A stretch of 64,000 nucleotides of DNA from an uncultured Actinomycetes bacterium (GTDB taxonomy: Bacteria > Actinomycetota > Thermoleophilia > Gaiellales > JAICJC01), in contig CAWGSU010000003.1 of NCBI GenBank assembly GCA_963825325.1, positions 192,895-256,894 of the forward strand, read 5' to 3'. Made by a program: the position numbers and the translations under genes. Every line of letters starts with the position of its first letter. Position 1 is the first letter of the stretch. Positions 1,681-26,182 of the stretch are shown here, in pieces. The notes beneath the pieces are model-generated. The model saw only the letters and a list, made by a program, of their open reading frames with translations. It ran no database searches and was not told where the DNA came from.

Positions 1681-1687
1681 TCACACA

Positions 1688-7016: not shown

Positions 7017-7038
7017 GACGTTCGACGATGTAGACCGA

Positions 7039-8634: not shown

Positions 8635-8761
8635 ATCTCTGTGTTGCAGCCTCCTTGATCGGTGGAAGCAGCCCGACCACTAGGCGAGTCCGGGCTCCGA
8701 GGTGTCGCCGCTGACGTGAACCACCGCCACGCCGGCGACTTGTTCCCAAAGGCGCCTGCGT

Positions 8762-8861
8762 CGCGGATGACGTGTCCGCGTTCCTGCAATCCCTATAACC
8801 TGGGAGCCATTTGACGGGAAGGCTGTTGGGGAGGCTCAGCGAGGTGCGAGCCGTAACGCGG
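8762..8861 (+). repeat. mosaic repeat copy 2: arm C(rc) - core - arm A(rc)
   Basis: Core variant CCTGGGAGCCATTTGACGGG at 8799-8818. The left arm ...TTCCTGCAATCCCTATAA is the reverse complement of the arm right of copy 4. The right arm AAGGCTGTTGGGG...CGTAACGCGG is the reverse complement of A. Confidence 0.9.
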
Positions 8862-9080
8862 TGGTCAGTCCGATCCCACGAGGCGTCCTTCGGGCCGGCT
8901 CGGAAGGCCGGTCCCGGCTGGAGTCACCGCCCGCGCGGCGGGTTGGCAAGCACATCGAGTCGGAGATTGCCCTGTGCGTCGCCATAGATCGCGCCCCGGA
9001 CACGTGCCTCGAAACGCCGTTAGAGTCGCGTGTTACGAGTGGGTGCCTTCGTGCCAAGCGGGCTCTCAAGGAGTGGGTGA

Positions 9081-10565
9081 ATGGCGCGGATTGTGGTGGT
9101 TGGAGGTGGAATCGGCGGCCTCAGCGTGGCGCTGCTGCTCGGTCGTGGGGGTCACCAGGTGACGGTGTGTGAGCGCGACCCGGCGCCTGCGCCGTTGAGC
9201 GCGGATGATGCGTGGACGGGGTGGCGGCGGCCGGGTACCCCGCAGGCACGGCTGGGGCATTCGTTCCTAGCGGGCTTTCGGCGGGCGTTGCGCCAGCGCC
9301 TGCCCGACGTGCTCGACGCGGTGCTGGCCGCCGGCGTGCCCGAGCTTGACATGACGATGTGGATGGCCGACGGCGTGGAGCGAGTGCCGCAGGACGCCGA
9401 GCTCTTCATCGTGCGAGCGCGGCGACCGGTTGTGGAGGCCGTGCTTCGACGGGCAGCGGAGGCGGAGCCGACCGTGCAGGTACGAGCTGGATGCCGTGTG
9501 CAAGGCCTGCTGGCCGATCCGCCACGGCCACGCGACGTTCCTCGGGTTACCGGCGTCGCCACCTCGCGTGGGGCGATCACCGCCGATGTCGTGGTTGTGT
9601 CCGGCGGCCGCTCGGTGCCGGTCGCGCGCTGGTTCCAAGCGATCGGAGCGACCACTCCAAACGAGCAGTCGGAAAGCTGTGGATCGGCGTGCTACACCCG
9701 CTACTTCCGGACGCTTGCCGCAGACGATGACGACGCGCGGATCGATACCGGTCCGACAATCCACCGCGACCCCGGCTACCTCCTCTACGAGGTATGGGGT
9801 GCCGACAATCACACCTTCGCATGCGAGATTGCAGTCCCCGTCTCCGACCAACCGCTGAAACAACTGCGCGACGAGGCAACCTGGATGGCGGCCGCAGCGG
9901 CGATGCCCGAGTGGCAGGAATGGATCGACCCGGAGCGTTCCCAGCCGATCACTCCCGGGGTGGACGTGATGGGCAACGAGCGCAACACCCTGCGACGATT
10001 CGTCGAGGACGATCGGCCATTGGCGCTGGGAGTGCACGTGATCGGCGATGCCCGCTGCCAGACCGACTCGCTGTACGCGTGGGGGTGCGGCAACGCGCTG
10101 ATGGCAGCGGCGGCAGTGTCCGACGCGATCACCGAGCACGCCACCGATGCCGAGGCTCAGGCGCTCTCCCTCGCCGCTGCCGTGGACGAGGAACTGGAAG
10201 GACGCTACGCGTACTCAGTCGCAAGGAATCGCGCCCGCGACCGTGTCCTTCGAGCCGAACCGCGCTGGGACACGATGAACACGGGCATCGGACTCATCGA
10301 CGGCGTGCTCCTCCCCGCCGCAGACCACGACGCGGAGGTCTACCGCGCCGTTTACCGGTGGGACTTACAGCTCGACCCAGCCGCCAACCTCGAACTGAAC
10401 GCGGCGGTGATCGAACGGGCACGAAAAACCGTTGGAGACCCCACCGAGCCCCCGCTCGACACCGAGGGCATACCCACCCGCGACCAATTACTGGAAGCGA
10501 TCGTCGGGAGCCCGGGATCCCGCCGGCGAACAGTGAGTCTGGGCCCTTTGTCGAGCGGCAACTGA
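9081..10565 (+). CDS. FAD-dependent oxidoreductase
   Basis: 494 aa with N-terminal dinucleotide-binding motif IVVVGGGIGGLSVALLLGRGGHQVTVCE. Confidence 0.85.
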   Translation: MARIVVVGGGIGGLSVALLLGRGGHQVTVCERDPAPAPLSADDAWTGWRRPGTPQARLGHSFLAGFRRALRQRLPDVLDAVLAAGVPELDMTMWMADGVERVPQDAELFIVRARRPVVEAVLRRAAEAEPTVQVRAGCRVQGLLADPPRPRDVPRVTGVATSRGAITADVVVVSGGRSVPVARWFQAIGATTPNEQSESCGSACYTRYFRTLAADDDDARIDTGPTIHRDPGYLLYEVWGADNHTFACEIAVPVSDQPLKQLRDEATWMAAAAAMPEWQEWIDPERSQPITPGVDVMGNERNTLRRFVEDDRPLALGVHVIGDARCQTDSLYAWGCGNALMAAAAVSDAITEHATDAEAQALSLAAAVDEELEGRYAYSVARNRARDRVLRAEPRWDTMNTGIGLIDGVLLPAADHDAEVYRAVYRWDLQLDPAANLELNAAVIERARKTVGDPTEPPLDTEGIPTRDQLLEAIVGSPGSRRRTVSLGPLSSGN

Positions 10566-10582
10566 CCGAGTCGCCGGTGGCG

Positions 10583-10630
10583 CCCGGGAAGGCTGTTGGG
10601 ACATCCCGCGAGGTGCGGGTCGTAACGCGG
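10583..10630 (+). repeat. mosaic repeat copy 3 (partial): CCCGGG + arm A(rc)
   Basis: CCCGGG is joined directly to AAGGCTGTTGGGACATCCCGCGAGGTGCGGGTCGTAACGCGG. The core segment AGCCATTTGACGGG is missing. Confidence 0.8.
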
Positions 10631-10744
10631 CCCTGCGGTAGCGAGATGTTGGGCACCTGAAACGTTCCGCGCCGCTGAAGCACCGTAGAGAGGGCGAACA
10701 CGAGGGCGGCGAGAGTGCGAGGACGCCGGCTATGTCCGCTCACA

Positions 10745-11031
10745 GCCGACGGCCCGCCGATGCCCTGCCGGTCGGCGGTGTCGGCGTGGTCGAGGTCCGG
10801 CGAGTCGCGGAAGATCTCGTCGACGGTCGCGTCTGGGCGGGCGAGTTCGTCGGCGACGGCGGCCTGGTGCTGCGGGAGCACCTCGTCGTTGAGCTCTTCG
10901 AGCATCGCGCGCAGTCGGCGGTTGACCTGGATGGCGGTCGCGCCGTACTCGCGGATCTTGGTTACGCCGAGTGCGAGGGAGTCGGCCCAGCGACGAGTGT
11001 GGATGACGACGTGTCCGGCCTGCGAGAGCCG
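10745..11031 (-). pseudogene. 3' remnant of a DUF2254-family gene
   Basis: Minus frame reads RLSQAGHVVIHTRRWADSLALGVTKIREYGATAIQVNRRLRAMLEELNDEV...ADRQGIGG, resembling a DUF2254 C-terminus. An in-frame TGA at 11032-11034 cuts off everything upstream, and there is no N-terminal part. Confidence 0.5.
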
Positions 11032-11036
11032 TCAGC

Positions 11037-11055
11037 CCTGGGAGCATCTCATAGG
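11037..11055 (+). repeat. possible degenerate core copy
   Basis: CCTGGGAGCATCTCATAGG against CCTGGGAGCCATTTGACGG: the first 9 nt are identical and about 15/19 match overall with one gap. It sits exactly at the truncation point of the DUF2254 remnant. Confidence 0.3.
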
Positions 11056-11115
11056 CGAGCCGCAGTCCGGTAGCTGGGTCAACTCCAGACTGTCGCCCAG
11101 GCGGGCGGTACCGGT

Positions 11116-11152
11116 GCGGGGCGCCACGGGTTGGGTACCGATGGCGCCCCGC
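11116..11152 (-). terminator. hairpin downstream of the alkaline-phosphatase-family gene
   Basis: 11-bp perfect stem GCGGGGCGCCA / TGGCGCCCCGC with a 15-nt loop, 15 nt beyond the stop at 11167. Confidence 0.45.
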
Positions 11153-11166
11153 GTTGGAGTGGGCCG

Positions 11167-13032
11167 TCAGCGCAGGCCTGGAAGGACTCGCGTTCCCTCC
11201 TGCTGGACGGCCTGTAGCGAGCCCGGATCGAGGCCGAGGAGCTGCAGGATTGTCGGCGCGACTTGGGTCGTAGTTACCCATTGGTCCGAGGCGCCACGGT
11301 GCACGGTCCCGGGCGCGTAGACGAGGATCGGCACGTCGCGGTCGCCTGGGTTGTCGCCGCCGTGCTCGGCGATCTTCGTGCCGGTGGTGTAGACGACGCC
11401 GACCTGGACACGGCCGAACACGTCCGGATGGCGCGGATCCGAGTACGGAACGCCGAAGAAGTGAGCGGCCTCCTCACCGGCGTAGATCCGCGCCAGGCCG
11501 GAGTGCGCGACCTGCTCGGTGCCGCGGTTCACGCCGTCGTTGTTGTAGAGCACCGCCGTCGCGCTGTGGTGCCACAGGTAGTGCTTGACGAAGTCGGCCG
11601 CGCGCTGCGTCTTGACGGACAGGTAGCTCTGCCACAGGTCGTCGTCGGTGCCGGCAACGATCAGCGGCGTGATCGTGCCTCCGCTCAGCCCGTTCGTGCA
11701 ATAGGTCGTCGGGTCGGGCATCGCTTTCGGGTTCTGCTGCTCGCACCAGGCCTCGTTGATCGCGCTGATGATCGGCCCGTCGTCGATCCGCTTCAGCAGC
11801 AACGGATTCTGCGGCGACTGACCATGCTTGGCCGTCACGATGATCGCCGTGGAGGACGCGAGGCCGTTTCGGCGGATCGTGTCGACCATCCGCCGAAGTT
11901 GCGCGTTGACGTAGTGCAGCGCGCCGGCCAGCAGCGGACGCGGGGTCGTCGTTCCGGGGTAGTAGCCGGCGAGCTCAGTCGGCCCCACCGTGTACGTGCC
12001 ATCCGCGTTCCTGGTGATGGTGCCAGGTGAGTCGACCTTCTCGGCGACCGACACGGCCTGGAAGTTCATCCCCAGGATCGCCGGCACACCAACCTTATGG
12101 CGGCCGCTGTGGTCGTAGCCGTCAATCTCGTTGATGACCGCCTGCACCTTGTAGCGGTCGTACTGCTTGGTAGCAGCGTCGATATGGGCCCAGTCGTCGT
12201 CCTGCGGATACGGAACGCCATTGGGCTCGACCGCCTGTGAGTCGATCTCCGGGGCGAACAGGTCGTCGATGCTGTAGCCACCCGACCCCGGACCGTTGAA
12301 CGACGAGTAGACCGCGTGCTTGTCAGACCAGGCCGTCCGCATGCCGGCGTGGTGGATGACCTGGAAGATCGTGTTCACCTTCAGGTAGTCCCACGGCATG
12401 ATCGGCTGACAGGTCGCCGGATCGACCGGGTAGGTCGCCGGGTTCAGGCCCGACTGCGGATGTGGGGTCAGGTTCATGATCGCGCCCGGGTTCGTGTCAA
12501 GGCCGTTCGGGTAGAGCGAGCCGCCCTCGTCGAAGGACGGGAACGTGTTGCCGCTACCGTTGTTGAGCAGGTCAGGTACGGCGTTGAGAATGTCGTCCGG
12601 CGAGTCGTAGATCACGTTGCCGCCCGGGACCGGACCCGAACAGCCGGTGGTGCCAGGCGGAAAGACTCTGTGGCTGTACTCCACGTCGTAGTAGACGCCG
12701 GTCGCGCGCGGATCACCGCCGGTCATCAACGCGGTGCCACCCGGGTCCGAGTCGGAGGGATCGGACGTGTGCGCGTTACTGAACTCCGTCCCACCGTGGA
12801 CCAGCTTGGCCAGTTCCGAGTTCGGGTGGTGTGCCACGTACCACTCGAGGTCGGACTGGTGCATCCCATCCACGGAGATCAACAGGACGTGCTTGACCCC
12901 ATGCTCGGCCCGCCCTTCGTGTTTTGCGGACGGCCGCACACCGGCGGAGGCCGATCCCGCCGCCAGAATCCCGAGCACGGCGACGCAGGCAACCGCGCCC
13001 GCACTACGACGCAACCTCAACATTTCGCGCAC
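11167..13032 (-). CDS. secreted alkaline phosphatase superfamily protein (nucleotide pyrophosphatase/phosphodiesterase-like)
   Basis: 621 aa. Signal peptide ...VAVLGILAAGSASA. Metal and nucleophile region HVLLISVDGMHQSD and SDPSDSDPGGTALMTGG. Confidence 0.88.
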   Translation of the reverse strand: MREMLRLRRSAGAVACVAVLGILAAGSASAGVRPSAKHEGRAEHGVKHVLLISVDGMHQSDLEWYVAHHPNSELAKLVHGGTEFSNAHTSDPSDSDPGGTALMTGGDPRATGVYYDVEYSHRVFPPGTTGCSGPVPGGNVIYDSPDDILNAVPDLLNNGSGNTFPSFDEGGSLYPNGLDTNPGAIMNLTPHPQSGLNPATYPVDPATCQPIMPWDYLKVNTIFQVIHHAGMRTAWSDKHAVYSSFNGPGSGGYSIDDLFAPEIDSQAVEPNGVPYPQDDDWAHIDAATKQYDRYKVQAVINEIDGYDHSGRHKVGVPAILGMNFQAVSVAEKVDSPGTITRNADGTYTVGPTELAGYYPGTTTPRPLLAGALHYVNAQLRRMVDTIRRNGLASSTAIIVTAKHGQSPQNPLLLKRIDDGPIISAINEAWCEQQNPKAMPDPTTYCTNGLSGGTITPLIVAGTDDDLWQSYLSVKTQRAADFVKHYLWHHSATAVLYNNDGVNRGTEQVAHSGLARIYAGEEAAHFFGVPYSDPRHPDVFGRVQVGVVYTTGTKIAEHGGDNPGDRDVPILVYAPGTVHRGASDQWVTTTQVAPTILQLLGLDPGSLQAVQQEGTRVLPGLR

Positions 13033-13583
13033 CCCTCCCGACGAAGACCCTGCCGCGCCGCATCCTCATTGCTCCACCGCGGCGCAGGGGTGAAAGAACG
13101 GTGAGCAGGCGGTGAGAATTCGGAAAAGCGGGGGCGGACCGCTGCCTGGGCGCCATGGCCGTCGTGTGCCGCTTGCTGGGCGGCGAGGAGGTGGCTGTCG
13201 GCGGCGAGCGGTTGGCTGCCGATGTCCTCGTAGACTCGCGCGGCGTCCGGGTAGTTCGCCTCGGCGGTGAGGAGTAGCGCGTCGCGCCAGCGGCACGCCG
13301 GAGGCAGGAGCAGCGCCGCCTGGCGGATGTCGTCGTGTCGGTCTGTCTGGGCGAGGATGAGGCTGAGCTCACAGAGTTCGGGAGCGTTGCTCGTTTGGCC
13401 ACCAGTCTGGCGCCGACGGGTGAGAAAGCGCGTGTCTTACTCGGCGCTCAGCCGAGCGTCGGGACTCAGTCGGCGGTACTGCAAGCTGAATCGCGACCGA
13501 GTGCGTGCCGCATCCGGTCCACGGGCCCAGGTTCACGTAGTCAGGGCACTCTATTGGTAATGCAGTGGCACGTCGCCGCGCCT

Positions 13584-14666
13584 TCATCGAACGTCGACGT
13601 AGATGACCTCGATGGCGTTATTCCCGTAGCCCAGCCTGTTCCAGATCGGGACTTCGGGTTGGACATTCCCGGCGGCATCGGTGGCGCGGGCGCGGAGGCT
13701 CTTTCGCCCGGGCTCCGTGGGTTCCCATTCGAACGACCAGTTCTGCCACTGGTACGGGCCTTTCGGTGTCTCCACGTGTGCCGGCAGCCATTCTGACTCG
13801 CCGGTGAGGCTGATGTCCACGTTCGTGACCGGACCGGTGCCCGACCATGCCTTGCCGCGAACCACGTATTTCCCCCCGCCGCCGATCACGGCGCCTTCGC
13901 GGGGGTCGGTAATGCGCGCGCGGGGCCGCATCACTGTCACGCGCTCGGCTGGGCGGTCTGCCCACTGGTACATGTAGTGCCCGGTTTCGAACTCGCCGAT
14001 GAACGGTTTGGTGACCACCTCGATGTGCTTGAGCCACTTGACGGAGGCGACGCCGTACCAGTGCGGCACGACCAGCCGAAACGGAGCTCCGTGGTCGGGG
14101 TTGAGCGGTTCGCCGTTCATCTCGTAGGCGATCATGATCTCGGCCGAAGGGTCGGCTGCGTGCACGAGGGTCAATGACCGCTCGAACGAGAGGTCTGAGG
14201 CATCGATGTCTTTGAGCACGGGGTTCAGGATGTATGACCCGTGGTCGACGCCGGCGAAAAGCACTTCGACGCCGGTGTCGAGCGGCGCCGCCCGTTCGAG
14301 CACCTCGTGGAGCAGCGCTCCCTTCCAACGTGCGGTGGAGACGGCGTAGTCGCCCCACGGCTCGCCGGCGGGGAGTGGGCGCATCGCGAGTCGTCCGTTA
14401 CCCGCGCATTCGAGGGTGACGACCCGCTCGATCGAGCGAATCGCTTTTAACTCGTCGAGACTGAGTGCGTAGGGATGGCCGACCGCTCCGCCGATCTCGA
14501 GCAGGCCGTCGTGGTCGGGGACTGGGAAGTTGCTGCGAACGTAGTGCAGCTCAGTCGGGGTGATGTCGGTCTCGAGCGCCTCGGGCGGCGCCTCGGCGTT
14601 GAACGGCTGGCCGTGGATCATCGTCAGTGCCGCGCGTTCGCGTTCCAGATCGTCTGCTAGAGCCAC
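13584..14666 (-). CDS. molybdopterin-dependent oxidoreductase, sulfite-oxidase family
   Basis: 360 aa with HYVRSNFPVP, TLECAGNGR and APFRLVVPHWYGVASVKWL, typical of the sulfite oxidase Moco and dimerisation domains. Confidence 0.9.
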   Translation of the reverse strand: MALADDLERERAALTMIHGQPFNAEAPPEALETDITPTELHYVRSNFPVPDHDGLLEIGGAVGHPYALSLDELKAIRSIERVVTLECAGNGRLAMRPLPAGEPWGDYAVSTARWKGALLHEVLERAAPLDTGVEVLFAGVDHGSYILNPVLKDIDASDLSFERSLTLVHAADPSAEIMIAYEMNGEPLNPDHGAPFRLVVPHWYGVASVKWLKHIEVVTKPFIGEFETGHYMYQWADRPAERVTVMRPRARITDPREGAVIGGGGKYVVRGKAWSGTGPVTNVDISLTGESEWLPAHVETPKGPYQWQNWSFEWEPTEPGRKSLRARATDAAGNVQPEVPIWNRLGYGNNAIEVIYVDVR

Positions 14667-14698
14667 AATAGGTCTCCTCGGTTCAAGCGGTGTGCGGG

Positions 14699-15562
14699 TT
14701 AGAAGTCAGGGTCTTGGAAGGTCGGGTCTCTGTCCTCGTTGAATGCACCGATGCCTTCGACCCGGTCGGGGTGTACGGCCGAGCGCCAGTGGGCTTCCAT
14801 CATGATCGAGATCGCCTGCTCGGTGGGCTGGCCTTGGCCCAGGTGAACTGCTCGTTTCACTGCCTGTGCTGCGGTTGGCGAGTTGCTGGCGATCTTCTCG
14901 GCGATCCGCTGCGCCGCCGTCGCGAGTTCGGCCTGCGGGTGGAGCTCGTTCACCATGCCCAGGCGATGGGCTTCCTCGGCAGTGATCGGATCACCCGTCA
15001 AGAGCATCTGCATCGCCTTCCCCGGCGGAAGCACCCGGGGCAGGAACACCGGGGAGCCGCCTCCCGCCGAGAGGCCGATCATGGCTTCCGGCTGGCCAAA
15101 CGTTGCGTTGTCCGAGGCGATGATGAAGTCGGTGCTCTGTGCGATCTCCGACCCGCCGCCGTAGGCGATGCCGTTGACGGCGGCAAAGATCGGCGTTCGC
15201 AGCTCACGCAGCGTGTACAGGGTGCGGTCGAAGGCCTGACGTTGCCGAAGCCAGTCCTCCTTGGTCATGCTGTGGCGCTCGCGGAGATCGCTCCCGACGG
15301 AGAAGGCGCGATCGCCCGCACCGGTGATCACCGCCACCCGCACGGCGGTCTGTACCCCGATGGTCTCCAGTACCTCAGTCAGACGAGCACCCATCGCGGT
15401 TGTGATGGCGTTGTCGGGCGGTCGGTTCAGAGTGATCAGAGCGATTGCCCCGTCGGCGAGGTAGGTGAGCAGGACAGGGTCCTCGGGTTCATCTCCGCTG
15501 GCGAGTGGGGGGCTGAAGTCCAGACTCTTCCAGCGGTCGGTATGTGGTGATCTTGGTGCCAC
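14699..15562 (-). CDS. enoyl-CoA hydratase/isomerase (crotonase) family protein
   Basis: Crotonase pattern ITGAGDRAFSVGSDL...FAAVNGIAYGGGSEIA. GTG start at 15562 follows RBS AGGAGA, 9 nt after the stop of the upstream gene. The longer ORF to 15778 would overlap that gene. Confidence 0.88.
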   Translation of the reverse strand: MAPRSPHTDRWKSLDFSPPLASGDEPEDPVLLTYLADGAIALITLNRPPDNAITTAMGARLTEVLETIGVQTAVRVAVITGAGDRAFSVGSDLRERHSMTKEDWLRQRQAFDRTLYTLRELRTPIFAAVNGIAYGGGSEIAQSTDFIIASDNATFGQPEAMIGLSAGGGSPVFLPRVLPPGKAMQMLLTGDPITAEEAHRLGMVNELHPQAELATAAQRIAEKIASNSPTAAQAVKRAVHLGQGQPTEQAISIMMEAHWRSAVHPDRVEGIGAFNEDRDPTFQDPDF

Positions 15563-15570
15563 GCGGTCTC

Positions 15571-16911: not shown

Positions 16912-16926
16912 CCTCGCAGGCCCACG

Positions 16927-18051: not shown

Positions 18052-18071
18052 ATGCCTTTTCCCTCTGCCGG

Positions 18072-18623
18072 TTAGTCGGCCGCCTCGTCGAGCAGTGGTG
18101 CCAGCACAGGGCTCTGAAGCGCGGCCTCGGCGCCCGGATCGTCCAGCACCTGCTGGAACGCCTCGCTGACGCGTTGGGCCTTGCGAATCTCCTTGACGGT
18201 GCCGCCGTAGTTTCGCGCATAGGCCGCGGCAGTAACCTGCGCGCCCAGCACGAAGTTCTTCACTGCCTGGAGATCGGGAAGCCCACCGTAGCCCTCGACG
18301 TGCTGGAAGACCTCGTCGAACAGCCTAAGCGTCGGGCCCGACGTGAAGAAGTCGTCCATATACGCGTCCCACGGGCCGTCGAAGCTCGTCGCGAACAACA
18401 AGCGGGTGTCATCGTCGAAGAGCACGAACCTGGCCTCGTGGATCGTCGCGACAGCCATATGGTGCTCGCCGGGTCGGTATCCAGGCTCGTCTTGCAGCGA
18501 CCGCAGCGCCGCTCGAATCTGCTTGCCGTGTCCGGGCCTCACAACAAAAAACAGGCTGAACTCGCTGGTCAGACCCGAACTCACACCGGGCCGCGATTCT
18601 CCACCTTCCACTGAACCTGACAT
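18072..18623 (-). CDS. conserved hypothetical protein co-clustered with DUF4331 and DyP
   Basis: ATG at 18623 after RBS GGGGAGGGTGG. Motif ATIHEARFVLFDDDTRLLFATSFDGPWDAYMDDF. The stop lies 20 nt before the DUF4331 start. Confidence 0.7.
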   Translation of the reverse strand: MSGSVEGGESRPGVSSGLTSEFSLFFVVRPGHGKQIRAALRSLQDEPGYRPGEHHMAVATIHEARFVLFDDDTRLLFATSFDGPWDAYMDDFFTSGPTLRLFDEVFQHVEGYGGLPDLQAVKNFVLGAQVTAAAYARNYGGTVKEIRKAQRVSEAFQQVLDDPGAEAALQSPVLAPLLDEAAD

Positions 18624-18893
18624 CCACCCTCCCCAATCGGTTCGGCACAAACGGTCGCGTTCCGCGCTGCGATCTTAGAGGGTTGCCACTAGCCAAGCGC
18701 CGTCCGCGCCGGTGGCACTGTGACGACCCAGACCCGATCGACACCACGGTTGACTCGCAAGAGCTGCTCGCGCGGATCGGGCGGTGCTCGGGCGCGTCTC
18801 CGGCAGCCGCGATCGCGGGGTGATCCGCCGCGGCGAGTTGCGGTGAACCTGCCCTCCTGCTAGGTGACGGGCGGCGGGAATGGGTCGAGGCTG

Positions 18894-19235
18894 TTAGGTC
18901 CTGGCGCTGTGGCCGGGCCTGGCGGCGTGCCTGACTGCTAGCTGGGCTACGAGTTCTTCTCGCTCGTGGCGGAGGGACTGCAGCATTCGCCGAGCGGCGG
19001 TGAGCCGAGTCGCGATCTCTTCAGTCTCGTGCCGGTGGGGTGCGAGAAGCGCGCGCTTGTCCATCGACCGACGGTACACCTCGCTCGAGGCTGATCGTTC
19101 ACCTGGCTCGTCGAACGTGTCGGGTTCACCGCTTGTTTTCTGAATCGTGTCCACCCATTCACTGTCCGGGAAAGGCCCGCCCCTTAGAGTGCCCCTCGGT
19201 AAGGCTCCTGGGAGCAGACGAGGAGGTCCAAGCAT
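18894..19235 (-). CDS. hypothetical small protein (start uncertain)
   Basis: 113-aa ORF. The C-terminal half MDKRALLAPHRHETEEIATRLTAARRMLQSLRHEREELVAQL looks helical or coiled. An alternative ATG is at 19064. It lies in a degraded accessory patch. Confidence 0.3.
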   Translation of the reverse strand: MLGPPRLLPGALPRGTLRGGPFPDSEWVDTIQKTSGEPDTFDEPGERSASSEVYRRSMDKRALLAPHRHETEEIATRLTAARRMLQSLRHEREELVAQLAVRHAARPGHSART

Positions 19236-19476
19236 GGATCGCGGTCATCTTCAGCGAACCGAGGATGCGAAGCGGCGGGCGAATGAGTGGATGTGGGAGG
19301 GCGTGTCCGCGGGTGGCGGCGAGCATTCGGTGCCATTTCTGTGTGAATGCGGAGGTATTGAGTGCCATGCGACGGTGTGGCTCACGCCGCGCGAGTACGT
19401 GGCGTGTCGAGCTGCGGCCGAGGAGGGCTCGGTCGCGGCGCCCGAGCACAGTCGCCGGCTGATGGTGGTCAGTTGA
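19234..19476 (+). CDS. small cysteine-motif protein
   Basis: ATG at 19234 after RBS GAGGAGG. Product MDRGHLQRTEDAKRRANEW...FLCECGGIECHATVWLTPREY, a CxC-x4-C pattern seen in small actinobacterial hypotheticals. Confidence 0.6.
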   Translation: MDRGHLQRTEDAKRRANEWMWEGVSAGGGEHSVPFLCECGGIECHATVWLTPREYVACRAAAEEGSVAAPEHSRRLMVVS

Positions 19477-19800
19477 CGCGCCTGGTTCCACGCAGCGTGC
19501 TCTTGCGGTTAACTGTGAGCGAGTCCGGCGGGGCGGCAGGCCGGCATAGAGAACCGGCTGATCGTAAGGGGCGAGTATACGATGACGCACCGCCGCAGAT
19601 CGTTGTCGTTCGTGCTCGTACGACCGGACGTTCACCAAGCGACGAACGGCATAGATCATGTCACCTGCGGTTCCCTTCATGATCTCGCGGCGCCGCCACG
19701 GGATGCAGAGTTGGCCGCGGACGCGCTGGTGGTGCGCGAGGTGACTTGGTGTGTCGGAGCCGGCTGACGCGGCCCGGGCGCCGCTCGACATGCTGCGCGT

Positions 19801-20400
19801 GTGATGAGCCGGATCCGGAGCCGCCGGGCACGTAGTCGTCGGGTCAACCCGACCAGAGCGCCAGCAGGTAGCCGAAACCGCGCGCACCAGGCTCCCAAGC
19901 CGCCGGCACTGGCTCACAAATGCGGCGACTGCGGACGAGAGATTCTGGCTGGTCAGCGACGCTGCGCGGACTGCCACGCCACCGCGAACACCGCCAGACT
20001 TCGGGAGCACCAAGCCGCCACCACCCTCCGGCGAAGGAATACTGGGGAGCACCCCTCCGCACGCGTCGAGGTCCGAGCGCGCGTCGCCAGCGCGCAACGC
20101 GCCCACGGGGAGGCTCGTCGCGAAGAGAGTGCTTCGGGATTCACCGGTCGGCCATCCGAATTCCGCCGTCTGATCCTCCCGAAACTCCAAGCCGTCACCC
20201 CTTCGCGTCTCGCCCGAGCGACCGGACTCTCCCCCGGCTACGCAGCCCAGATCAGGAACGGTACTCGCACCCCACACCCGCGCCACTGGGCAGCACTCCA
20301 CCTCGCAGGACTGCAGGCCAACGAAGAGGCACCGGGCAGGGGTAGCGCCGGATCACGACCACCTCGCCTGCCACGCGAAGGTCCCCATCCGTCCGGTTAG
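19801..20400 (+). CDS. hypothetical protein with zinc-ribbon and HTH-like regions
   Basis: 199 aa with CGDCGREILAGQRRCADC and FRRLILPKLQAVTPSRLARATGLSPGYAAQIRNGTRTPHPRHW. I recall this motif pair from actinobacterial hypothetical proteins. Confidence 0.55.
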   Translation: MMSRIRSRRARSRRVNPTRAPAGSRNRAHQAPKPPALAHKCGDCGREILAGQRRCADCHATANTARLREHQAATTLRRRNTGEHPSARVEVRARVASAQRAHGEARREESASGFTGRPSEFRRLILPKLQAVTPSRLARATGLSPGYAAQIRNGTRTPHPRHWAALHLAGLQANEEAPGRGSAGSRPPRLPREGPHPSG

Positions 20401-20426
20401 GGAGAGAAGGAATTAGACCGGCCGTC

Positions 20427-21347
20427 TCAGGAAAGGAAGCGGTGGATGGCTTCGTTGGCGTTGTCCTGAAACGACGGGTTGGCCAGATCGGGGAAGATGT
20501 CCGCTTGGTTGACCAGGGGACCCTTGAGCGTGTTGGCCGCGCTGGCGTAGAACTCGCCGCTGGACAGGGTCGGGTCGGTGACGCCGTCGACGAGCCGCTT
20601 CGCTCCCACGTCGAGTTTGTGGGCGAGACCTAGGGCGGGCATGACGTACTTGGCGGCTACCCGCATCGGTAGGGGAAGGTCGTTGGGGGCTTGGGTGCCG
20701 GTGGTGTTGCCGGGGCTCACGGTGATGAATCGGCGGTCGGGGTGTTGGCGGGCCAGGTAGGCCATCCAGAGGGCCCCGATGTACTTGGTCTGGCCGAACG
20801 CGAGGTTGAAGTCAGCTTTTCTGCTGGCGAAGTAGCTGCCGTCGATGACGGTGGCGAGTTCATCGGCTGAGGTTGAGACGAAGGATGGCCCTTTCATCCG
20901 CAACTTCGGAACTCCGCGGACTGCTTCACTTCCGGCGAGGACCGCAACCTCGCCAAGCCGGTCATGGGCCAGGAGCCCTTCGAGGAGGACGACGTGGCCA
21001 AGGACGTTCGTCGCGAACACGGTGGTGACCCCGTCAGCGGTCAAGTCCATCGTCTTCGGGCCAATGACGCCGGCGTTCATGACCAGCGCGTCGAGGGATC
21101 CGTCGATGGCCGCCAGGCCGGCGCGGACGGAACCCAGATCGGCAACGTCCATGAGAACGATGTCGAAGATCTTCCGGCCGGTCTCCGCTTCGAGGTCGGC
21201 CTTCGCCGTTCTCGCCCGCTCTTGGTTCCGGCACGCCAGGTAGATGCGGGCGATCTCGGGACGTGATGCCAGTTGCCGGGCCACCTCCTTGCCGATCCCG
21301 ACGTTGGCGCCCGTGATCAACACGGTCTTTCCTGGGAGTGTGCTCAT
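20427..21347 (-). CDS. short-chain dehydrogenase/reductase (SDR)
   Basis: ATG at 21347 after RBS GAGGGA. Product MSTLPGKTVLITGANVGIGKEVARQL...NAGV. The upstream part of ORF 20427..21650 is R-rich noise. Confidence 0.9.
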   Translation of the reverse strand: MSTLPGKTVLITGANVGIGKEVARQLASRPEIARIYLACRNQERARTAKADLEAETGRKIFDIVLMDVADLGSVRAGLAAIDGSLDALVMNAGVIGPKTMDLTADGVTTVFATNVLGHVVLLEGLLAHDRLGEVAVLAGSEAVRGVPKLRMKGPSFVSTSADELATVIDGSYFASRKADFNLAFGQTKYIGALWMAYLARQHPDRRFITVSPGNTTGTQAPNDLPLPMRVAAKYVMPALGLAHKLDVGAKRLVDGVTDPTLSSGEFYASAANTLKGPLVNQADIFPDLANPSFQDNANEAIHRFLS

Positions 21348-21508
21348 CAGACTTTCCCTCTCATCTTTCTTGGGCCTGGCCCGCACAGCGGCCTTTTGCT
21401 TTCCCGGCCGTTGCAGCCACAAGGCTGTTCTTGACTGGAATGATTGATCCACTATGCCAAATATCATATGGTATGTCAAAGCCATTTTCAGCGGTATACT
21501 TTCCGCGG
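21348..21508. promoter_or_regulatory. divergent SDR/TetR intergenic region with an AT-rich imperfect palindrome
   Basis: Local AT-rich patch CCAAATATCATATGGTATGTCAAAGCCATTTTCAGCGGTATACT, including TATCATATGGTA (10/12 palindromic), between divergent starts at 21347 and 21509. Confidence 0.4.
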
Positions 21509-22147
21509 ATGTCCTCAAGCAGCTCTGGTCGGCCGCGGTTGACGCGCAAGGGCGCCGCCACGCGCGCGCGGATCGTCGACGCCGCGGCAGAGCTGATCTT
21601 TCAGCAGGGCGTTGCCCACACGACGATCGAGGAAGTGCGCGACGGCGCACACGTGAGCAGCTCGCAGCTCTACCACTACTTCGAGGACAAGCCGGCGCTC
21701 GTCCGGGCAGTCATCGAGCGCCAGGCCGACACGATGATCGCCACGCAGGAGCGGTTTGACCTCAGCAGCCTCGACGGCCTGCGGGAGTGGCGCGATTTCG
21801 TTGTCGATCACGCCCGCACCATGGGCGGCCGCTTCGGTTGCCCGATCGGCTCTCTCGGTGCCGCGCTGGCCGAGACGGAGCCCGAAGGTAGGGCAGTGGT
21901 TGCGGCGTCCTTCAAACGCTGGGAGGCCAGCATCATGGCTGGTTTTCTGCGGATGCACGCGCTTGGCCGACTCGAGCCGGAGGCCGACCCGCGCCAGCTC
22001 GCGCTGGCCACGCTTGCCGCACTTGAGGGCGGCCTCTTGCTCGCTCAGATCCAGCGCGACTCCGAACCGCTCGCGGCCGCGCTCGACGCGATGCTCACGC
22101 TCATCGCCACCCTCAGGAGCACCACGAGCACGTCGCTCAACCGCTGA
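21509..22147 (+). CDS. TetR-family transcriptional regulator
   Basis: ATG at 21509. Product MSSSSSGRPRLTRKGAATRARIVDAAAELIFQQGVAHTTIEEVRDGAHVSSSQLYHYF, a TetR HTH. Confidence 0.9.
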   Translation: MSSSSSGRPRLTRKGAATRARIVDAAAELIFQQGVAHTTIEEVRDGAHVSSSQLYHYFEDKPALVRAVIERQADTMIATQERFDLSSLDGLREWRDFVVDHARTMGGRFGCPIGSLGAALAETEPEGRAVVAASFKRWEASIMAGFLRMHALGRLEPEADPRQLALATLAALEGGLLLAQIQRDSEPLAAALDAMLTLIATLRSTTSTSLNR

Positions 22148-22279
22148 GCGGCACCGATGCCCTAGGGGAAGCCGTCGCTGAGCGCGTGGTGCGAGATCCT
22201 CTGTGTAATGGATTACTTACGCCATTTCTGTTACAGTCTGCCCTGGAATAATGGATTGTGTTTTCCAACTGTGAAGGGG

Positions 22280-22920
22280 ATGTCGACAATGGATCTGCAG
22301 GACAAACGGGTTTGATCACCGGTGGCACGTCCGGGATGGGGATTGCCACCGCGCAGGCGCAGTTCATCGCCGCGGATTTCTCGGAGTTCTCCGAGGTGGG
22401 GCGTGTCGCCGAGGCGGCAGGCGAAATCGATGTCCTTCTCAACCTTGCCGGCGTTGCCGTCATGGGAGCGACGACTGACACCGACGAGACGGCGTTCGAC
22501 GGTCTGTTCCAGATCAACGTCAAGGCGCCGTTCTTCCTCGTTGCCGCGCTCGCCCCGAAGATCGCTGCCCGCGGTGGCGGGTCGATCATCAACGTCTCAA
22601 CGATGGTCGCGAGCTACGGCCAGCCAGGCTTGGCTGCCTACGGAGCCTCGCGCGTGGCGATCGAGCTGCTGACAAAGGCGTGGGCCGCCGAATACGGGCC
22701 GCAGAACGTCCGGGTTAACGCGGTCGCTCCCGGTCCGACGTTGACCCCGACACTGGAGCCGCGGTTGGCGATGGCCCAGGAGTTTGCCAAGCAGATTCCA
22801 CTCGGCCGGGTCGCTGACGTGCGCGAGCTGTCTGACGTCATCACGTTCCTCGCGACCCCGGCGGCCGGCGACATCACCGGCGCGATCATCCACGTCGACG
22901 GCGGCCGCACCGCGGTCTGA
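22280..22920 (+). pseudogene. SDR-family gene with a 5' frameshift and an internal deletion of the cofactor-binding region
   Basis: RBS AAGGGGA plus ATG 22280/22289 encodes (MST)MDLQDKRV then a stop. The SDR body TGLITGGTSGMG... continues in the +1 frame from about 22306 (GACAAACGG). GIATAQAQFIAADFSE lacks the roughly 35 aa normally between the glycine motif and the D-x-S/T strand. Length 632 = 3n-1. Confidence 0.6.
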
Positions 22921-22976
22921 GAGAGACGCGATGGTCCTGGTCACCACTCCCCGCGAGCGGACTTCCCAGGGGCGGA

Positions 22977-23174
22977 TTAGAGGATCTTGAAGAGCATCTT
23001 GACGCCCGTGCGGAGGTTCCGTTGGCGAGCCAGAACCGCGACCGTGATTAGCCCTCCCAAGACGATGGGCACGAAAGAGCGTGCTTCGTCTTTGAGCGCA
23101 TCGAGGTCTGTCGCCAGCGCTTGCCGCTCAGCCGCGATCTCCAACCGGATCTCCTCGACCGGGCGCTCAGGCAT
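22977..23174 (-). CDS. small membrane-anchored protein (DUF3618-like)
   Basis: 65 aa with helical N-terminus EEIRLEIAAERQALATDLDALKDEA and a C-terminal TM segment. It overlaps the upstream gene stop by 8 nt. Confidence 0.6.
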   Translation of the reverse strand: MPERPVEEIRLEIAAERQALATDLDALKDEARSFVPIVLGGLITVAVLARQRNLRTGVKMLFKIL

Positions 23175-23535
23175 GGTCCTGAAGCGTCTTCACGGTTCGC
23201 TGCGCCTCGTCGGCGACGGCCCACGGCACCGTGGCCTTCTTCGCGAAACGCTTCGCCAGTAGTCCTGCGATCGCAGCCACCAAGAGCACTCCGCCCGCAA
23301 CGATCAGCAACGAGAGCCACACCGAGAAGGTGGTGCTCAGCGCCGCTGCCGCGGCGCCGAGGGCGAACAGCACCGCGTAGGCGATGAGCACGACCGCCGC
23401 CAGTCCGAGCGCGCCGGCGACTCCGACCGCGCCGGCTTTCCGCTTCGCCTCGAGCTGAGCAAGCTCGACGTTGAGTTGGGCTAACGACCTCAGCCGAGTC
23501 TGCACCCGCCTCGCTTGGGAGACGATCCCGAACAT
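23167..23535 (-). CDS. phage-holin-family / Holin-X-like membrane protein
   Basis: ATG at 23535. Product MFGIVSQARRVQTRLRSLAQLNVELAQLEAKRK followed by two TM segments. An earlier GTG is possible. Confidence 0.65.
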   Translation of the reverse strand: MFGIVSQARRVQTRLRSLAQLNVELAQLEAKRKAGAVGVAGALGLAAVVLIAYAVLFALGAAAAALSTTFSVWLSLLIVAGGVLLVAAIAGLLAKRFAKKATVPWAVADEAQRTVKTLQDHA

Positions 23536-23653
23536 CTCGGCAGCGAGCGTAGCAGGCTGGCCGACGCTCAGCCGTTTCGGGCAGCGCCCGTCCCGAACCT
23601 GACGTTCGGTACCATTGACGGCTCTGCGGTTGACGAGAACTGAGGAGGCAGTC

Positions 23654-23971
23654 ATGAAGACGTTGCTCGCTGTGCTTGTCGGGGTGCTTGCGGCGATCGG
23701 TGCCGCCGTCGTCGCTCTCGTGTTCTTGCGGAAGAAGCCGGACTCGTGGGGCCCGGCGGTGAGTTCCGCTCGAGACACGGCCACCTCGTGGGGGAAGTCC
23801 GCGGCCGACGGGGCGAGCCAGGCCGCCGACAAGGTTGCGGCCACCGCTGCTGATGCCACCGATGCGGCGAGCAAAGCCGCCGACAAGGTTGCGGCCACCG
23901 CCGAGGGTGCGACCGATGCGGCATCCACAGTCGCCGATCAGGCGAAGAGCATGGTGCGCAAGGGCACCTGA
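23654..23971 (+). CDS. membrane-anchored alanine-rich repeat protein (YtxH-like)
   Basis: RBS GAGGAGG plus ATG 23654. Product has an MKTLLAVLVGVLAAIGAAVVALVFL anchor, then two 18-aa repeats AADKVAATA(A/E)(D/G)ATDAAS. Confidence 0.7.
   Translation: MKTLLAVLVGVLAAIGAAVVALVFLRKKPDSWGPAVSSARDTATSWGKSAADGASQAADKVAATAADATDAASKAADKVAATAEGATDAASTVADQAKSMVRKGT
23822..23901 (+). repeat. in-frame 54-bp tandem duplication inside the YtxH-like gene
   Basis: GCCGCCGACAAGGTTGCGGCCACCGC occurs at 23822-23847 and again at 23876-23901. Confidence 0.7.
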
Positions 23972-24070
23972 CCGAGTCGGTCTGCACGGGCGCCGTGGCG
24001 GCCTGCGTGGAAAACGATAGGGACCTGCTGCCGTTACCCTCAGCCTGCTCGACAGCCAGACAATCCGGTC

Positions 24071-24162
24071 GTGCGGCGTTTCGCCCTCTCTATCTACTCT
24101 CCCGGGAGCCATTTGACGGGTTATAGGGATTGCAGGAAGTCGGACACGGGGGGCATCCCGAC
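24071..24162 (+). repeat. mosaic repeat copy 4: arm B(rc) - core - arm C
   Basis: Core at 24101-24120. The left arm GTGCGGCGTTTCGCCCTCTCTATCTACTCT is a 30/30 reverse complement of 27676-27705. The right arm is TTATAGGGATTGCAGGAA plus hairpin GTCGG..CCGAC. Confidence 0.9.
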
Positions 24163-24314
24163 GTGGCGACGCGGCTAGGGTACGCCTCCGGTTCCACGCC
24201 GTCGAGGGCGGCGGCGACGACGATGGCGTCGCCCGCTTCCACCCGATCGGCAGCCCGCCACGTTCCGAGCAGCCGCTCGGGATCCCCGCCCGCAGGGCCA
24301 GCGGGTTAGCGACC

Positions 24315-25520: not shown

Positions 25521-26182
25521 AGCCGGTAGCCGACACCGACGACGGTCTCGATCAGCGGCGGCTCCCCGAGCTTCCGCCGCAAACGTGCAATCGTGACGGC
25601 GACCGTATTGCTAAATGGATCGGCGTTCTCGTCCCACACGTGTTCCAGTAGATGCTCGGCGCTGACCGGTGCGCCGTCCGCGTCGGCCAGACACTCCAGC
25701 ACGCCGAACTCCTTGCGGGTCAGGGTCAGCGGGATGCCGGCGCGGCTGGCACGGTGCCGCGCACGATCGACCACCAAGTCGCCTCTGTGCACGACCGCGG
25801 GTGAGCCGGGCCCGCGGCGCCCAAGCGCGCGGATCCGCGCGATCAACTCGTGGAAGGCGAATGGCTTGCCGAGGTAGTCGTCTGCGCCCAACTCCAATCC
25901 GTCGACCCGATCCTCGACGTCTGCGGCAGCAGTCAGCATCAGGATGCGGCTCGACAAGCCGTCGCGCACTAGACGCCGGCAGACCTGGTCGCCGTGGACG
26001 GACGGCAGGTCGCGGTCGAGCACAACCACGTCGTATTCCGTAGCCGTGGTTCTCTGCAGCGCTGCCGAGCCGTCGTAGACCACATCGACGGCGAATCCGG
26101 CGTCGCGCAGACCCTCGCCGATTCGGTTGGCCAGCGCGACGTGATCCTCCACAACGAGCACGCGCACATCCACATTCTGCAC
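25517..26182 (-). CDS. OmpR-family response regulator
   Basis: 221 aa with receiver motifs VLVVEDH and VVVLDRDLP and a winged-helix C-terminus LTRKEFGVLECLA...VGVGYRL. There is a 4-nt overlap with the kinase gene. Confidence 0.9.
   Translation of the reverse strand: MQNVDVRVLVVEDHVALANRIGEGLRDAGFAVDVVYDGSAALQRTTATEYDVVVLDRDLPSVHGDQVCRRLVRDGLSSRILMLTAAADVEDRVDGLELGADDYLGKPFAFHELIARIRALGRRGPGSPAVVHRGDLVVDRARHRASRAGIPLTLTRKEFGVLECLADADGAPVSAEHLLEHVWDENADPFSNTVAVTIARLRRKLGEPPLIETVVGVGYRL

Follow-up and report, generated by a model that had tools for sequence, protein, structure and literature searches.

Candidate arrays of gene cassettes upstream of lexA in uncultured soil Actinobacteria

In the 64-kb stretch of actinobacterial DNA analyzed here (the window), a 15.3-kb segment lies between two copies of a short repeat, which raises the question of whether it entered an intact palindromic site as a single insertion, as a preliminary description had proposed, or is part of something larger. 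The host belongs to a clade of uncultured soil Actinobacteria, whose nearest named relatives are metagenome-assembled Gaiellales genomes. We found that the segment is interval 2 of at least four in an array ending at the -35 box of lexA. The region from ~7 kb to 29.25 kb is interpreted, with moderate confidence, as an array of mobile, cargo-only gene cassettes that share one 14-bp target; its left limit probably lies before window position 1. The row looks like an integron, yet its junctions look like transposon insertions. No published description of such a cassette array upstream of lexA was found in the literature.

Core repeats, arms and intervals in the window

Exact copies of the 17-nt core GGGAGCCATTTGACGGG were found at 7084, 8802, 24104 and 27659, and a fifth copy at 29241 is truncated, its sequence stopping after TTGAC. 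Five matches compare with 0.18 expected, and none of 100 shuffles reached five. All cores are in direct orientation on the + strand, and all five sites have the same layout of arm, CCC, 14 nt (N9 plus TTGAC), GGG and inverted arm. The 14-nt cores occupy 7084-7097 (GGGAGCCAT followed by TTGAC), 8802-8815 (preceded by CCT in place of CCC), 24104-24117 and 27659-27672 (both exact matches), and 29241-29254, in which the TTGAC at 29250-29254 is the lexA -35 box. The cores reported to bound the segment are thus real repeats.

The arms belong to few families, designated A, B, C and the rare D/E. The C arm TTCCTGCAATCCCTATAA at 8781-8798 recurs at 24121-24138 as its exact reverse complement (18/18, 0 expected), as had been described, and the complementarity extends to 28/30 across 8771-8800 and 24119-24148. 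The three B arms are identical across 33-35 nt. An A-family arm of variant A' lies at 7039-7083 (- strand, profile scan E=1.4e-8); it is of the left form, with CCC as its last bases at site 1, and forms the right-hand end of the DNA preceding it. Profile scans confined the arms to 7-29 kb of the window, and no arms were detected downstream of lexA in the relatives scanned.

The cores and arms delimit four intervals. Interval 1 (7098-8801) runs from a D arm (7098-7141) to a C arm (8770-8801) and carries an alpha/beta-hydrolase/adenylate-cyclase gene (7390-8634, + strand), a 59% identical homologue of which adjoins an A/A site in a relative (L072). Interval 2 (8816-24103) is the 15.3-kb segment; its left end is an A-family arm (8816-8860) and its right end a B-family arm (24069-24103), in agreement with the preliminary description. 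Interval 3 (24118-27658), with a C arm (24118-24149) and an A arm (27614-27658), encodes a histidine kinase, a response regulator and a 441-aa protein without assigned function. Interval 4 (27673-29240) contains an M20 peptidase gene (27767-28882, - strand) between B arms at 27673-27707 and 29207-29240, which are perfect 35-nt inverted repeats (35/35). The GC content of the segment (0.661) is indistinct from that of its array neighbours (0.656-0.676); the whole array differs from the genome right of lexA (0.72), lying 5-6% below the flanking genome, with gene GC3 of 0.71-0.86 vs 0.90-0.96.

Since its two ends are mismatched (A and B), interval 2 is not one simple cassette; it is composed of several former ones. 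At 10586-10629 lies an orphan A arm (+ strand, arm profile scan) that lacks a core, and module boundaries at 10584, 20436 and 22149 recur in other contigs, in line with the accreted character suggested earlier for this region. Homology of the FAD-oxidoreductase module to one relative (L044) ends exactly at the outer end of the orphan arm (10584). The SDR/TetR module (20436-22149) is 86% identical to a locus upstream of lexA in a relative with 93% LexA identity (L087) and is partly common to another (L047), and both comparisons place its left boundary at 20436.

Joining the cores at 8802 and 24104 in silico did restore a C palindrome, with a long hairpin of -71.8 kcal/mol vs -32 to -47 kcal/mol at the real sites. 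Deletion of interval 1 (7098-8801) or interval 3 (24118-27658), however, also restored a palindrome (-76.8 and -81.4 kcal/mol), so that interval 2 has no special history in this respect, and the three histories cannot all be true. C arms are also found in at least 10 loci of relatives, beside genes that are unrelated, and the restored palindrome is not diagnostic: the 18/18 match shows the arm family, not a specific history. The segment may have entered, or moved into, a core between two C-ended neighbours, and alternative orders of events are equally compatible. The palindromes of intervals 1 and 3, the orphan A arm and the coincidence of the last core with the lexA -35 region had been overlooked earlier.

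The lexA anchor and the arrays of relatives

The promoter of lexA (29255-29298, + strand), for which we propose the term leader, contains a conserved TCCGTCCGACC that abuts the insertion point, a -10 element CACACT (29273-29278) and an SOS box CGAACACATGTTCG (29285-29298), and is followed by the coding sequence (29316-29951, + strand; likely start, ATG 29316; first in-frame ATG of the ORF, 29292). We compared ~50 metagenomic loci with LexA proteins 70-97% identical, in which the DNA upstream of lexA had the architecture described above but unrelated cassettes; gene content there varies even among strains with identical LexA. In every relative lexA is the fixed right-hand anchor of the array. 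In nearly all distinct lexA loci, the rightmost junction is TTGAC/TCCGTCCGA, within the lexA promoter, the exceptions being L065, with TTGCG, and L088-L090, with a core but no adjoining arm. Adjacent cassettes have just one copy of the core between them.

Of 40 distinct sites, 39 have arms spaced by 14 nt, irrespective of the spacer sequence. The information content is ~0.1-0.4 bit over spacer positions 1-8 and 2 bits in TTG(AC), the site filter itself having demanded a loose TTGAC-like end. Within one array, cores are identical or differ at 1-3 positions, and N9 is unrelated between close relatives, as in the window (GGGAGCCAT) vs L086 (CGCACTTCC), which are 92% identical from TTGAC onward. 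In L065 the distal and lexA-proximal cores point in opposite directions.

Individual cassettes were traced between arrays. Interval 3 has counterparts in L069, L042 and L057 that match positions 24290-27659 at 96-98% identity and have the opposite orientation relative to the core; its A arm (27614-27658) borders N9 in the window, whereas in L057 and L069 it borders TTGAC, at the other end of the core. The M20 cassette is 94% identical to its counterpart in L056, which is inverted relative to the core. Since these cassettes are found both ways round and the core is asymmetric, insertion occurs in either orientation. The interval 3 and M20 counterparts sit in contigs with ATCCGCGGT-type cores, and lexA-bearing contigs with that core type encode only LexAs ~73% identical to that of the window. 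The presence of near-identical cassettes in contigs with a foreign core type indicates that the cassette moves without the core. Homology between genomes stops exactly at arm tips (27659, 10584/10586 and 29250). As had been supposed, mobile DNA is genuinely joined at the cores, and the stretches from one core to the next act as movable units. The state presumed to precede the M20 insertion, with an A arm at the unique lexA flank, was seen in many relatives. In no relative is 7101-8798 directly followed by 24121 onward, the arrangement expected if the segment had been a single insertion; homologues of both cassettes neighbouring interval 2 sit beside other partners. Two relatives (L044 and L069) are 100% identical save for a 156-bp deletion that removes an arm and alters the first core bases, which is junction decay seen directly.

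Palindromic C/C and A/A junctions occur in L073, L043, L057, L066, L069 and L072. Chimeric, non-folding sites make up 13 of 20 in relatives and all four internal sites of the window, and a hairpin site is not required, because most sites cannot fold. Small cassettes with matched inverted arms were found in the window (M20) and in L034, L063, L065, L069 and L077, and arm families differ at the two ends in 6 of the 12 cassettes with both ends known. With arms drawn from 3-4 families, two arms match by chance in ~30% of cases; around intervals 1, 2 and 3 alike, the two outer arms are of one family (~3% by chance).

Candidate mechanism and competing explanations

A fairly probable explanation is that cassettes bounded by inverted repeats were inserted with duplication of a 14-bp target, in a casposon-like geometry. 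The arms would be terminal inverted repeats of 30-45 bp with 3' ends in CCC, which an integrase encoded elsewhere would join to staggered nicks 14 nt apart, and gap repair would duplicate the 14-mer, so that the target would be regenerated beside lexA and between cassettes and be reusable. An arm-core-arm site would then consist of two abutting cassette ends and one copy of the duplicated target. Repeated insertion would grow the arrays, with cassettes passing between species, and deletion would decay junctions, giving fused cassettes and orphan or mismatched arms; the 15.3-kb segment would be a fused interval of this kind. Deletion into the lexA-proximal copy would reset N9, and later insertions would copy the new 14-mer. 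The data show the anatomy of the arrays and its retention in relatives, horizontal cassette transfer, both insertion orientations, the constant 14-nt spacing and junction decay through deletions; we infer the staggered cut, the duplication and the trans-acting enzyme, whose geometry would be closest to a Cas1-type casposase, a DDE transposase also being possible. Neither an unoccupied target nor a clear left array end was found, so that target duplication is a step we infer. Several observations stand against it: the mismatched half of the cassettes would need fusion by deletion or interchangeable ends, full N9 turnover among close relatives would need the deletion-reset assumption, the matching outer arms at intervals 1-3 are not predicted, the distal L065 core is inverted, and neither an integrase or transposase nor Cas1 or PolB was detected in the window.

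No integrase or transposase of any kind was detected among the genes of the 64-kb window, and none of its called genes has a Phage_integrase domain. Cas_Cas1 and DNA_pol_B had no match among the window genes and were absent among the Pfam families listed (the 25 commonest of 77, and of 30) for 104 ORFs of array loci, lists in which an isolated match might have escaped notice. The arrays of relatives contained no integrase or transposase apart from two genes: a tyrosine integrase in L060, located 160 nt from a core-less A arm, and in L088/L089 an IS481-like gene that is degraded. Across ~400 kb of loci, no autonomous element had A, B or C ends. If related to casposons, the cassettes could be at most non-autonomous.

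The L060 integrase lends some weight to conservative, integron-like recombination, which we nevertheless consider doubtful. A recombinase, for example a tyrosine integrase of this type, would bind the arms and exchange strands in the core; cassettes would excise as circles, and a 15.3-kb circle with a B/A site would have entered a C/C site. The five direct repeats of the window and the palindromic A/A and C/C sites of relatives fit this: starting from the order 1-3-2-4, every junction would arise if interval 2 or 3 were excised and re-inserted once. Homologues of the L060 integrase also resemble integron integrases in their setting, a conserved locus beyond which the DNA varies. Those in L078-L085, however, have no arms downstream, no homologue is present on the 1.9-Mb or 2.1-Mb contigs with lexA arrays (judged from the longest contigs listed), and five long loci (L033, L034, L035, L076 and L077) lack an integrase within 10 kb upstream of lexA. 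Three further observations argue against such exchange: cassettes occur both ways round relative to a core that is asymmetric, transferred cassettes are flanked on each side by the core of the recipient, and arm tips are joined to non-core DNA at 10586 and in L060. The 14-nt spacer between arms, about twice the 6-8-bp overlap of known tyrosine recombinases, also speaks against it.

It is unlikely that arm-core-arm palindromes folded from single-stranded DNA are attC-like recombination sites and that one insertion split the C hairpin. The 28/30 hairpin obtained by in silico deletion and the matching arms outside intervals 1-3 would be expected from such folding, and insertion could favour a cruciform whose loop holds the core. 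Yet about two thirds of the relatives' sites are chimeric and do not fold, and the inner variable parts of the arms are non-complementary in A/A sites such as L043, indicating that compensatory change is absent. The three palindrome-restoring deletions of the window are mutually exclusive, C arms occur in many unrelated contexts, and the inserted segment would have mismatched ends and an internal orphan arm. We regard as very improbable that the repeats are passive, REP-like or terminator palindromes or local duplications with no role in mobility, in a segment of ordinary chromosome. Their intergenic position and the strong hairpins predicted for some sites would suit this, but the repeats are restricted to DNA upstream of lexA and coincide with breakpoints of synteny and of transferred cassettes, and the lower GC content of the array and the differing gene content beside identical LexAs also speak for mobility.

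Relation to known systems

Like chromosomal integrons, the lexA arrays contain promoter-less or short cassettes of unrelated functions with imperfect palindromes between them, and their content is strain-specific with cassettes common to different species. Both have a link to the SOS response, here through lexA itself and in integrons through LexA control of intI. In integrons, a tyrosine integrase gene (intI) sits next to the array and its attI site, and cassettes share one orientation relative to the recombination sites. Their attC sites can fold as imperfect palindromes built of R''/L''-L'/R' boxes, and because crossover takes place at GTT they stay intact in arrays. Membership among integrons was rejected: the array has no adjacent integrase gene (intI), its junctions are cut at the palindrome centre with most sites chimeric and non-folding, and its cassettes lie in both orientations. 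An array-specific repeated 14-mer takes the place of conserved R boxes, and the arms are conserved in sequence, unlike attC, which is conserved in structure only. To our knowledge, no integrons have been reported in this phylum.

The reuse of one chromosomal target beside a conserved gene to build a genomic island recalls Tn7-like islands at attTn7. Tn7-like elements differ in their 5-bp duplication (vs a 14-nt repeat), tnsABC and multiple TnsB sites, and were rejected, the window having no transposition genes. Mobile insertion cassettes (MICs, MITE-like) are likewise cargo-only units with transposon ends that are mobilised in trans, but the ~400 kb yielded no cognate insertion sequence whose ends were of the A, B or C type. 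IS481-type elements can make duplications of up to 15 bp, with ends that start TGT rather than GGG as here, and are represented by the one degraded copy in L088/L089. The pdif modules of XerC/D, with two 11-bp arms and a 6-bp central region (28 bp) in alternating orientation, do not match arms of 30-45 nt, a 14-nt spacer and the direct sites of the window. Dispersed REP/BIME repeats, which occur in many copies across the intergenic regions of a genome, were rejected on the confinement of the arms in the window and in the relatives scanned.

Casposons duplicate a 14-bp target, have ends in ...TATATCCC-3' and are strongly site-specific; in tandem arrays, elements are separated only by one shared duplication, and part of the duplicated sequence is conserved while the rest is free (PMC4779613, PMC6977970). 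The lexA arrays share with them terminal inverted repeats, a ~14-bp repeat flanking each interval (here a putative duplication), a 3' CCC (...TATATCCC in M. mazei, ...CTATAACCC in the C arm of the window), strict specificity for a site beside a conserved flank, and a regenerated target at which elements stack with a single shared duplication. The differences are that no cas1, polB or HNH gene was detected in any cassette and that the cassettes are small (0.35-4 kb), with a cargo limited to ordinary metabolic or regulatory genes; several arm families occur per array, the arrays are much longer (at least 5 junctions), and the target is a promoter -35 region rather than the 3' end of a tRNA or EF-2 gene. 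By analogy, it is possible, though we hold it only tentatively, that a Cas1/casposase-type or wholly new leader-anchored integrase builds the lexA array as CRISPR arrays are built, measuring off and duplicating a 14-bp 'repeat' at each insertion. The array would then be a functional analogue of integrons that arose from transposon machinery and is physically coupled to the SOS regulator. The theme of leader and duplicated repeat, earlier associated with spacers and self-synthesising transposons, would then reach ordinary gene cassettes.

If insertion with target duplication is correct, site-specific stacking of cargo-only, transposable cassettes would be a second, mechanistically distinct route to an integron-like gene store, present in abundant uncultured soil Actinobacteria. 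With the hotspot for insertion lying within the promoter of the gene that governs the SOS response, a coupling of DNA damage to gene acquisition would be worth testing. The arm profiles and CCC-N14-GGG beside TCCGTCCGA would serve as signatures for mining the cassette pool, and the arrays would account for the assembly breaks upstream of lexA in these organisms.

Cores and arms upstream of lexA

The larger finding of this analysis is an array at lexA that extends beyond the 15.3-kb segment described previously. The sites of the array consist of 30- to 45-nt terminal inverted repeats (arms of families A, B and C and the rarer D and E), the tips of which flank a 14-nt core composed of N9 and TTGAC. 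The sequence GGGAGCCATTTGACGGG was found exactly at positions 7084, 8802, 24104 and 27659, all on the + strand, and a fifth core copy at 29241 is truncated after TTGAC. Five matches were thus seen vs 0.18 expected, and no shuffle got to five. Arms were named L form when ending in ...CCC to the left of the core and R form when starting with GGG... to its right. The five arm-core-arm sites, s1 to s5, carry A' and D, C and A, B and C, A and B, and B and the lexA promoter on their left and right sides, respectively. Arm profiles derived from 47 A, 14 C and 12 B sequences were run over the 64 kb; apart from the known arms they detected a single orphan A arm (10586-10629) and nothing elsewhere. The cores delimit interval 1 (7098-8801, 1.7 kb) with a hydrolase-cyclase gene, interval 2 (8816-24103, 15.3 kb), which is the reported segment, interval 3 (24118-27658, 3.5 kb) with a histidine kinase, a response regulator and a protein of unknown kind, and interval 4 (27673-29240, 1.6 kb) with an M20 peptidase.

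Core 5 supplies lexA with its -35 box, the TTGAC at 29250-29254, which is followed on its 3' side by TCCGTCCGACC, the -10 box CACACT, the SOS box CGAACACATGTTCG and an ATG at 29316, which was taken as the lexA start; another ATG, at 29292, falls within the SOS box. TCCGTCCGACC, an 11-nt stretch (29255-29265) between the -35 and -10 boxes, borders the insertion point and is near-invariant in ~20 relatives, including lineages with LexA just 70% identical, which is unusual for a promoter spacer. Because it touches the insertion point, TCCGTCCGACC may be the "leader" recognition motif of a putative integrase. The block of lexA, a small ORF, a solute-binding protein and rnpB was kept in all relatives and constitutes the fixed side of the array. 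A class A bacterial RNase P RNA (235 bits) maps to 31349-31701 on the + strand, 1.4 kb downstream of lexA.

We compared the window with LexA-encoding relatives (70-97% identical), which all came from soil metagenomes and for which the sole names given by the sources were Gaiellales. DNA downstream of lexA is conserved in these relatives, and the upstream DNA varies even among strains with identical LexA. The lexA -35 box of the relatives is directly preceded by a C, A or D arm, CCC, nine lineage-specific bases and TTGAC. A metagenome scan with the A-arm pattern identified 34 further loci, all of which share the grammar arm-CCC-N9-TTGAC-GGG-arm or have the lexA promoter on the right, and the pairings A|A, C|C, A|B, B|A, A|C, C|A, C|B and B|C were found. 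The arm tips are 14 nt apart in 39 of 40 distinct sites and 13 nt apart in the other one; the first eight positions of these sites are almost information-free and TTGAC is near-invariant, under a filter that demanded a loose TTGAC-like end. Within each array the core is homogeneous (5/5 in the window; 0-3 differences in other arrays). These results strongly suggest that a lineage-conserved array of mobile cassettes is located at the lexA promoter, and no account of a lexA-associated cassette array came up in full-text literature searches.

Searching one genome per species with the core 17-mer returned 32 single, scattered matches in unrelated phyla. Three of these were inspected and showed unremarkable sequence with no arm next to the core; the genome-collection matches are chance. 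The plasmid collection gave gene-level matches only, and no A or C arms were found in viral contigs. In L065, a relative's contig, the distal core (6530-6543) is inverted relative to the lexA-proximal core (4246-4259), which has TTGCG instead of TTGAC, indicating that inversions also reshape arrays.

Several other roles for the sites were considered and rejected. A role of the core as a cassette promoter was ruled out, a plausible -10 box at 17 nt being present in the lexA copy only. A nicking hairpin of the IS200/IS605 or HUH type was ruled out, as the arms pair between ends and not locally and most sites are unfoldable. Rfam gave no match at the sites, with the RNase P RNA at 31349-31701 as the only match in the window, and no tRNA genes were found in the window, so an attachment site in an RNA gene was rejected as well.

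Transfer of cassettes and proposed duplication of the core

Three metagenomic loci (L069, L042 and L057) match the region 24290-27659 at 96-98% identity, and a fourth (L056) matches the M20 cassette at 94%. All four have cores of the ATCCGCGGT type, and lexA-bearing contigs with this core type encode LexA only ~73% identical to that of the window. Near-identical cassettes beside unlike cores and such diverged LexA indicate that cassettes crossed between diverged hosts without their core and have the recipient's core on both sides. One and the same A arm touches the core on its N9 side in the window and on its TTGAC side in L057 and L069, and L056 likewise has M20 inverted, indicating insertion in either orientation relative to the asymmetric core. 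Homology between genomes ends exactly at arm tips (27659, 29250 and 10584, the last beside the orphan arm), and small cassettes have matched inverted arms (M20 in the window, 35/35; L034, 0.35 kb; L063, L065, L069 and L077). The N9 is unrelated even between near kin (GGGAGCCAT in the window vs CGCACTTCC in L086), with the flank 92% identical from TTGAC on.

Transfer without the core, insertion in both orientations, arm-tip breakpoints, matched ends and the behavior of the core together fit terminal-inverted-repeat elements with a 14-bp target duplication, and fit conservative exchange inside the core poorly. We lean, with some reserve, toward a duplicative, transposon-like mechanism. Two relatives' loci, L044 and L069, differ only in a 156-bp deletion (100% identity otherwise), through which an arm was lost and the core start changed from ATCC... 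to GGGC..., and a deletion can explain N9 turnover. If such a deletion hit the lexA-proximal core copy, later insertions would copy the new 14-mer, the spread of which would resemble that of CRISPR repeats propagated from the leader-proximal repeat.

Tn3-family ends (GGGG...TAAG, 5-bp duplication) were ruled out by the duplication length, and the palindrome as an internal part of a larger unit was ruled out because the arm tips are the end of homology. Private sequence variants were only weakly informative as proof of arm pairing, since there is almost no variation among B arms anywhere and the "aacccggaca" C-arm variant is common.

History of the 15.3-kb segment

The preliminary description reported that removing the segment in silico restores a C palindrome and proposed one insertion into a hairpin site. 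The underlying observation was confirmed: the 18-mer left of the core at 8802 is the exact reverse complement of the 18-mer right of the core at 24104, and complementarity continues past the 18-mer to give 28/30 overall. As described, the segment also has an A-type arm at its start and a B-type arm at its end. The segment could have inserted or moved as a block into a core between two C-ended neighbors. The outside arms match three in a row, for which the chance probability is ~0.03. However, there are just three to four arm families and C arms stand beside unrelated genes in at least 10 loci of relatives, so that two arms match with a probability of ~0.3 (counts from loci found via LexA). A long palindrome is also restored by removing interval 1 (-76.8 kcal/mol) or interval 3 (-81.4 kcal/mol), compared with -71.8 kcal/mol for interval 2, and these three histories are mutually exclusive. 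Moreover, no relative was found with the two flanks of the segment adjacent, and homologues of interval 3 and of the gene in interval 1 adjoin other partners. The restored C palindrome thus reflects the family to which the arms belong and does not prove a single insertion; two neighbors with like ends probably give rise to the hairpin as a by-product. Were the intervals arranged 1-3-2-4, every junction would be palindromic, and one cassette move would account for the three-in-a-row match. Palindromic junctions might be preferred targets, for example if a cruciform is extruded.

The earlier interpretation is partly supported, in that the cores do mark where pieces of mobile DNA meet, and the make-up of interval 2 agrees with the remark that the region was accreted. 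Its ends are unlike (A vs B), the outer tip of its orphan A arm is the end of homology to L044, and its SDR/TetR module (20436-22149) is found again, with the same boundary, in L087, where it lies upstream of lexA, and in part in L047. Judged from these features, interval 2 is made up of several former cassettes fused together, the junctions between them having decayed.

Intervals 1-3 and the 7 kb on their left side have a GC content of 0.656-0.676, compared with 0.71 for interval 4 and 0.72 for the DNA right of lexA, and the GC3 of genes in intervals 1-3 is 0.71-0.86 vs 0.90-0.96 in the core genome. Neighboring intervals being similar in both measures, composition does not set the segment apart from its array neighbors, and it is the array as a whole that is compositionally distinct from the chromosome. 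The stretch 1-7083 is as low in GC (0.663) as the array, and the array contig L063 contains a fragment 89% identical to the metallophosphoesterase gene of this stretch (6198-7016), so the array probably extends beyond the left end of the window.

Two tandem 54-nt units (23805-23912, 83% identical) lie inside a holin-like gene (23167-23937, - strand) at the right end of the segment. Across the 3' end of the M20 peptidase CDS, ~90 nt inside the B arm, runs a 33-nt inverted repeat (27796-27863) with 88% complementarity and a gap of 2 nt; the stop codon is at 27767-27769.

Known systems and candidate enzymes

Casposons make 14-bp duplications, have ends in ...CCC-3' and are strongly site-specific, with a conserved flank at the target; tandem casposons share one duplication between elements (PMC4779613, PMC6977970); an actinobacterium with a family-3 casposon is known (PMC4046053). 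This geometry is the closest published likeness to the lexA array. However, cas1, the defining gene, was not found for the array, which therefore is not a casposon and at most works like one. Nor is it an integron, since it has no adjacent intI, no intact foldable attC sites and no uniform cassette orientation, and tests for Tn7-like islands, XerCD dif modules and REP elements each gave a negative result. We describe the array as a site-specific stacking of transposable units (compare casposon and Tn7 islands) that results in an integron-like cassette store.

Genes for a recombinase, transposase, Cas1 or PolB are absent from the 64-kb window, and none was found among the commonest Pfam families listed for 104 array-locus ORFs, with two exceptions. 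One is a tyrosine integrase in L060 (63-1559), 160 nt upstream of an A arm without a canonical core; its family is ~298 aa long and is named Gaiellales site-specific integrase by one source. Homologues of this type (L078-L085) always stand by ECF sigma/anti-sigma, HD-GGDEF and MFS genes, with strain-variable DNA downstream. None of these eight loci has arms beside the integrase, the A arm being found in L060 only, and no such homologue was found on the megabase contigs bearing lexA arrays. Long array-bearing contigs include ERZ25039539 contig_4543 (1.9 Mb), ERZ25039606 contig_5958 (2.1 Mb) and ERZ25039533 contig_26826 (1.0 Mb). The integrase locus may be another hotspot of integration or may mark the distal end of an array. 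The other exception is a frameshifted IS481-like (rve) transposase pseudogene (L088, 1060-2040; L089, 1200-2180) ~190 nt upstream of the lexA core, with the 14-mer CGCCGCGCCTTGAC and no arm at the junction. Since the window and array loci offer no other candidate, the integrase presumably is encoded elsewhere and acts in trans.

The contig L034 starts 5.5 kb upstream of lexA, and L082 ends 1.4 kb after the integrase. Such breaks of one study's long-contig assemblies in or beside variable regions suggest strain heterogeneity or repeats.
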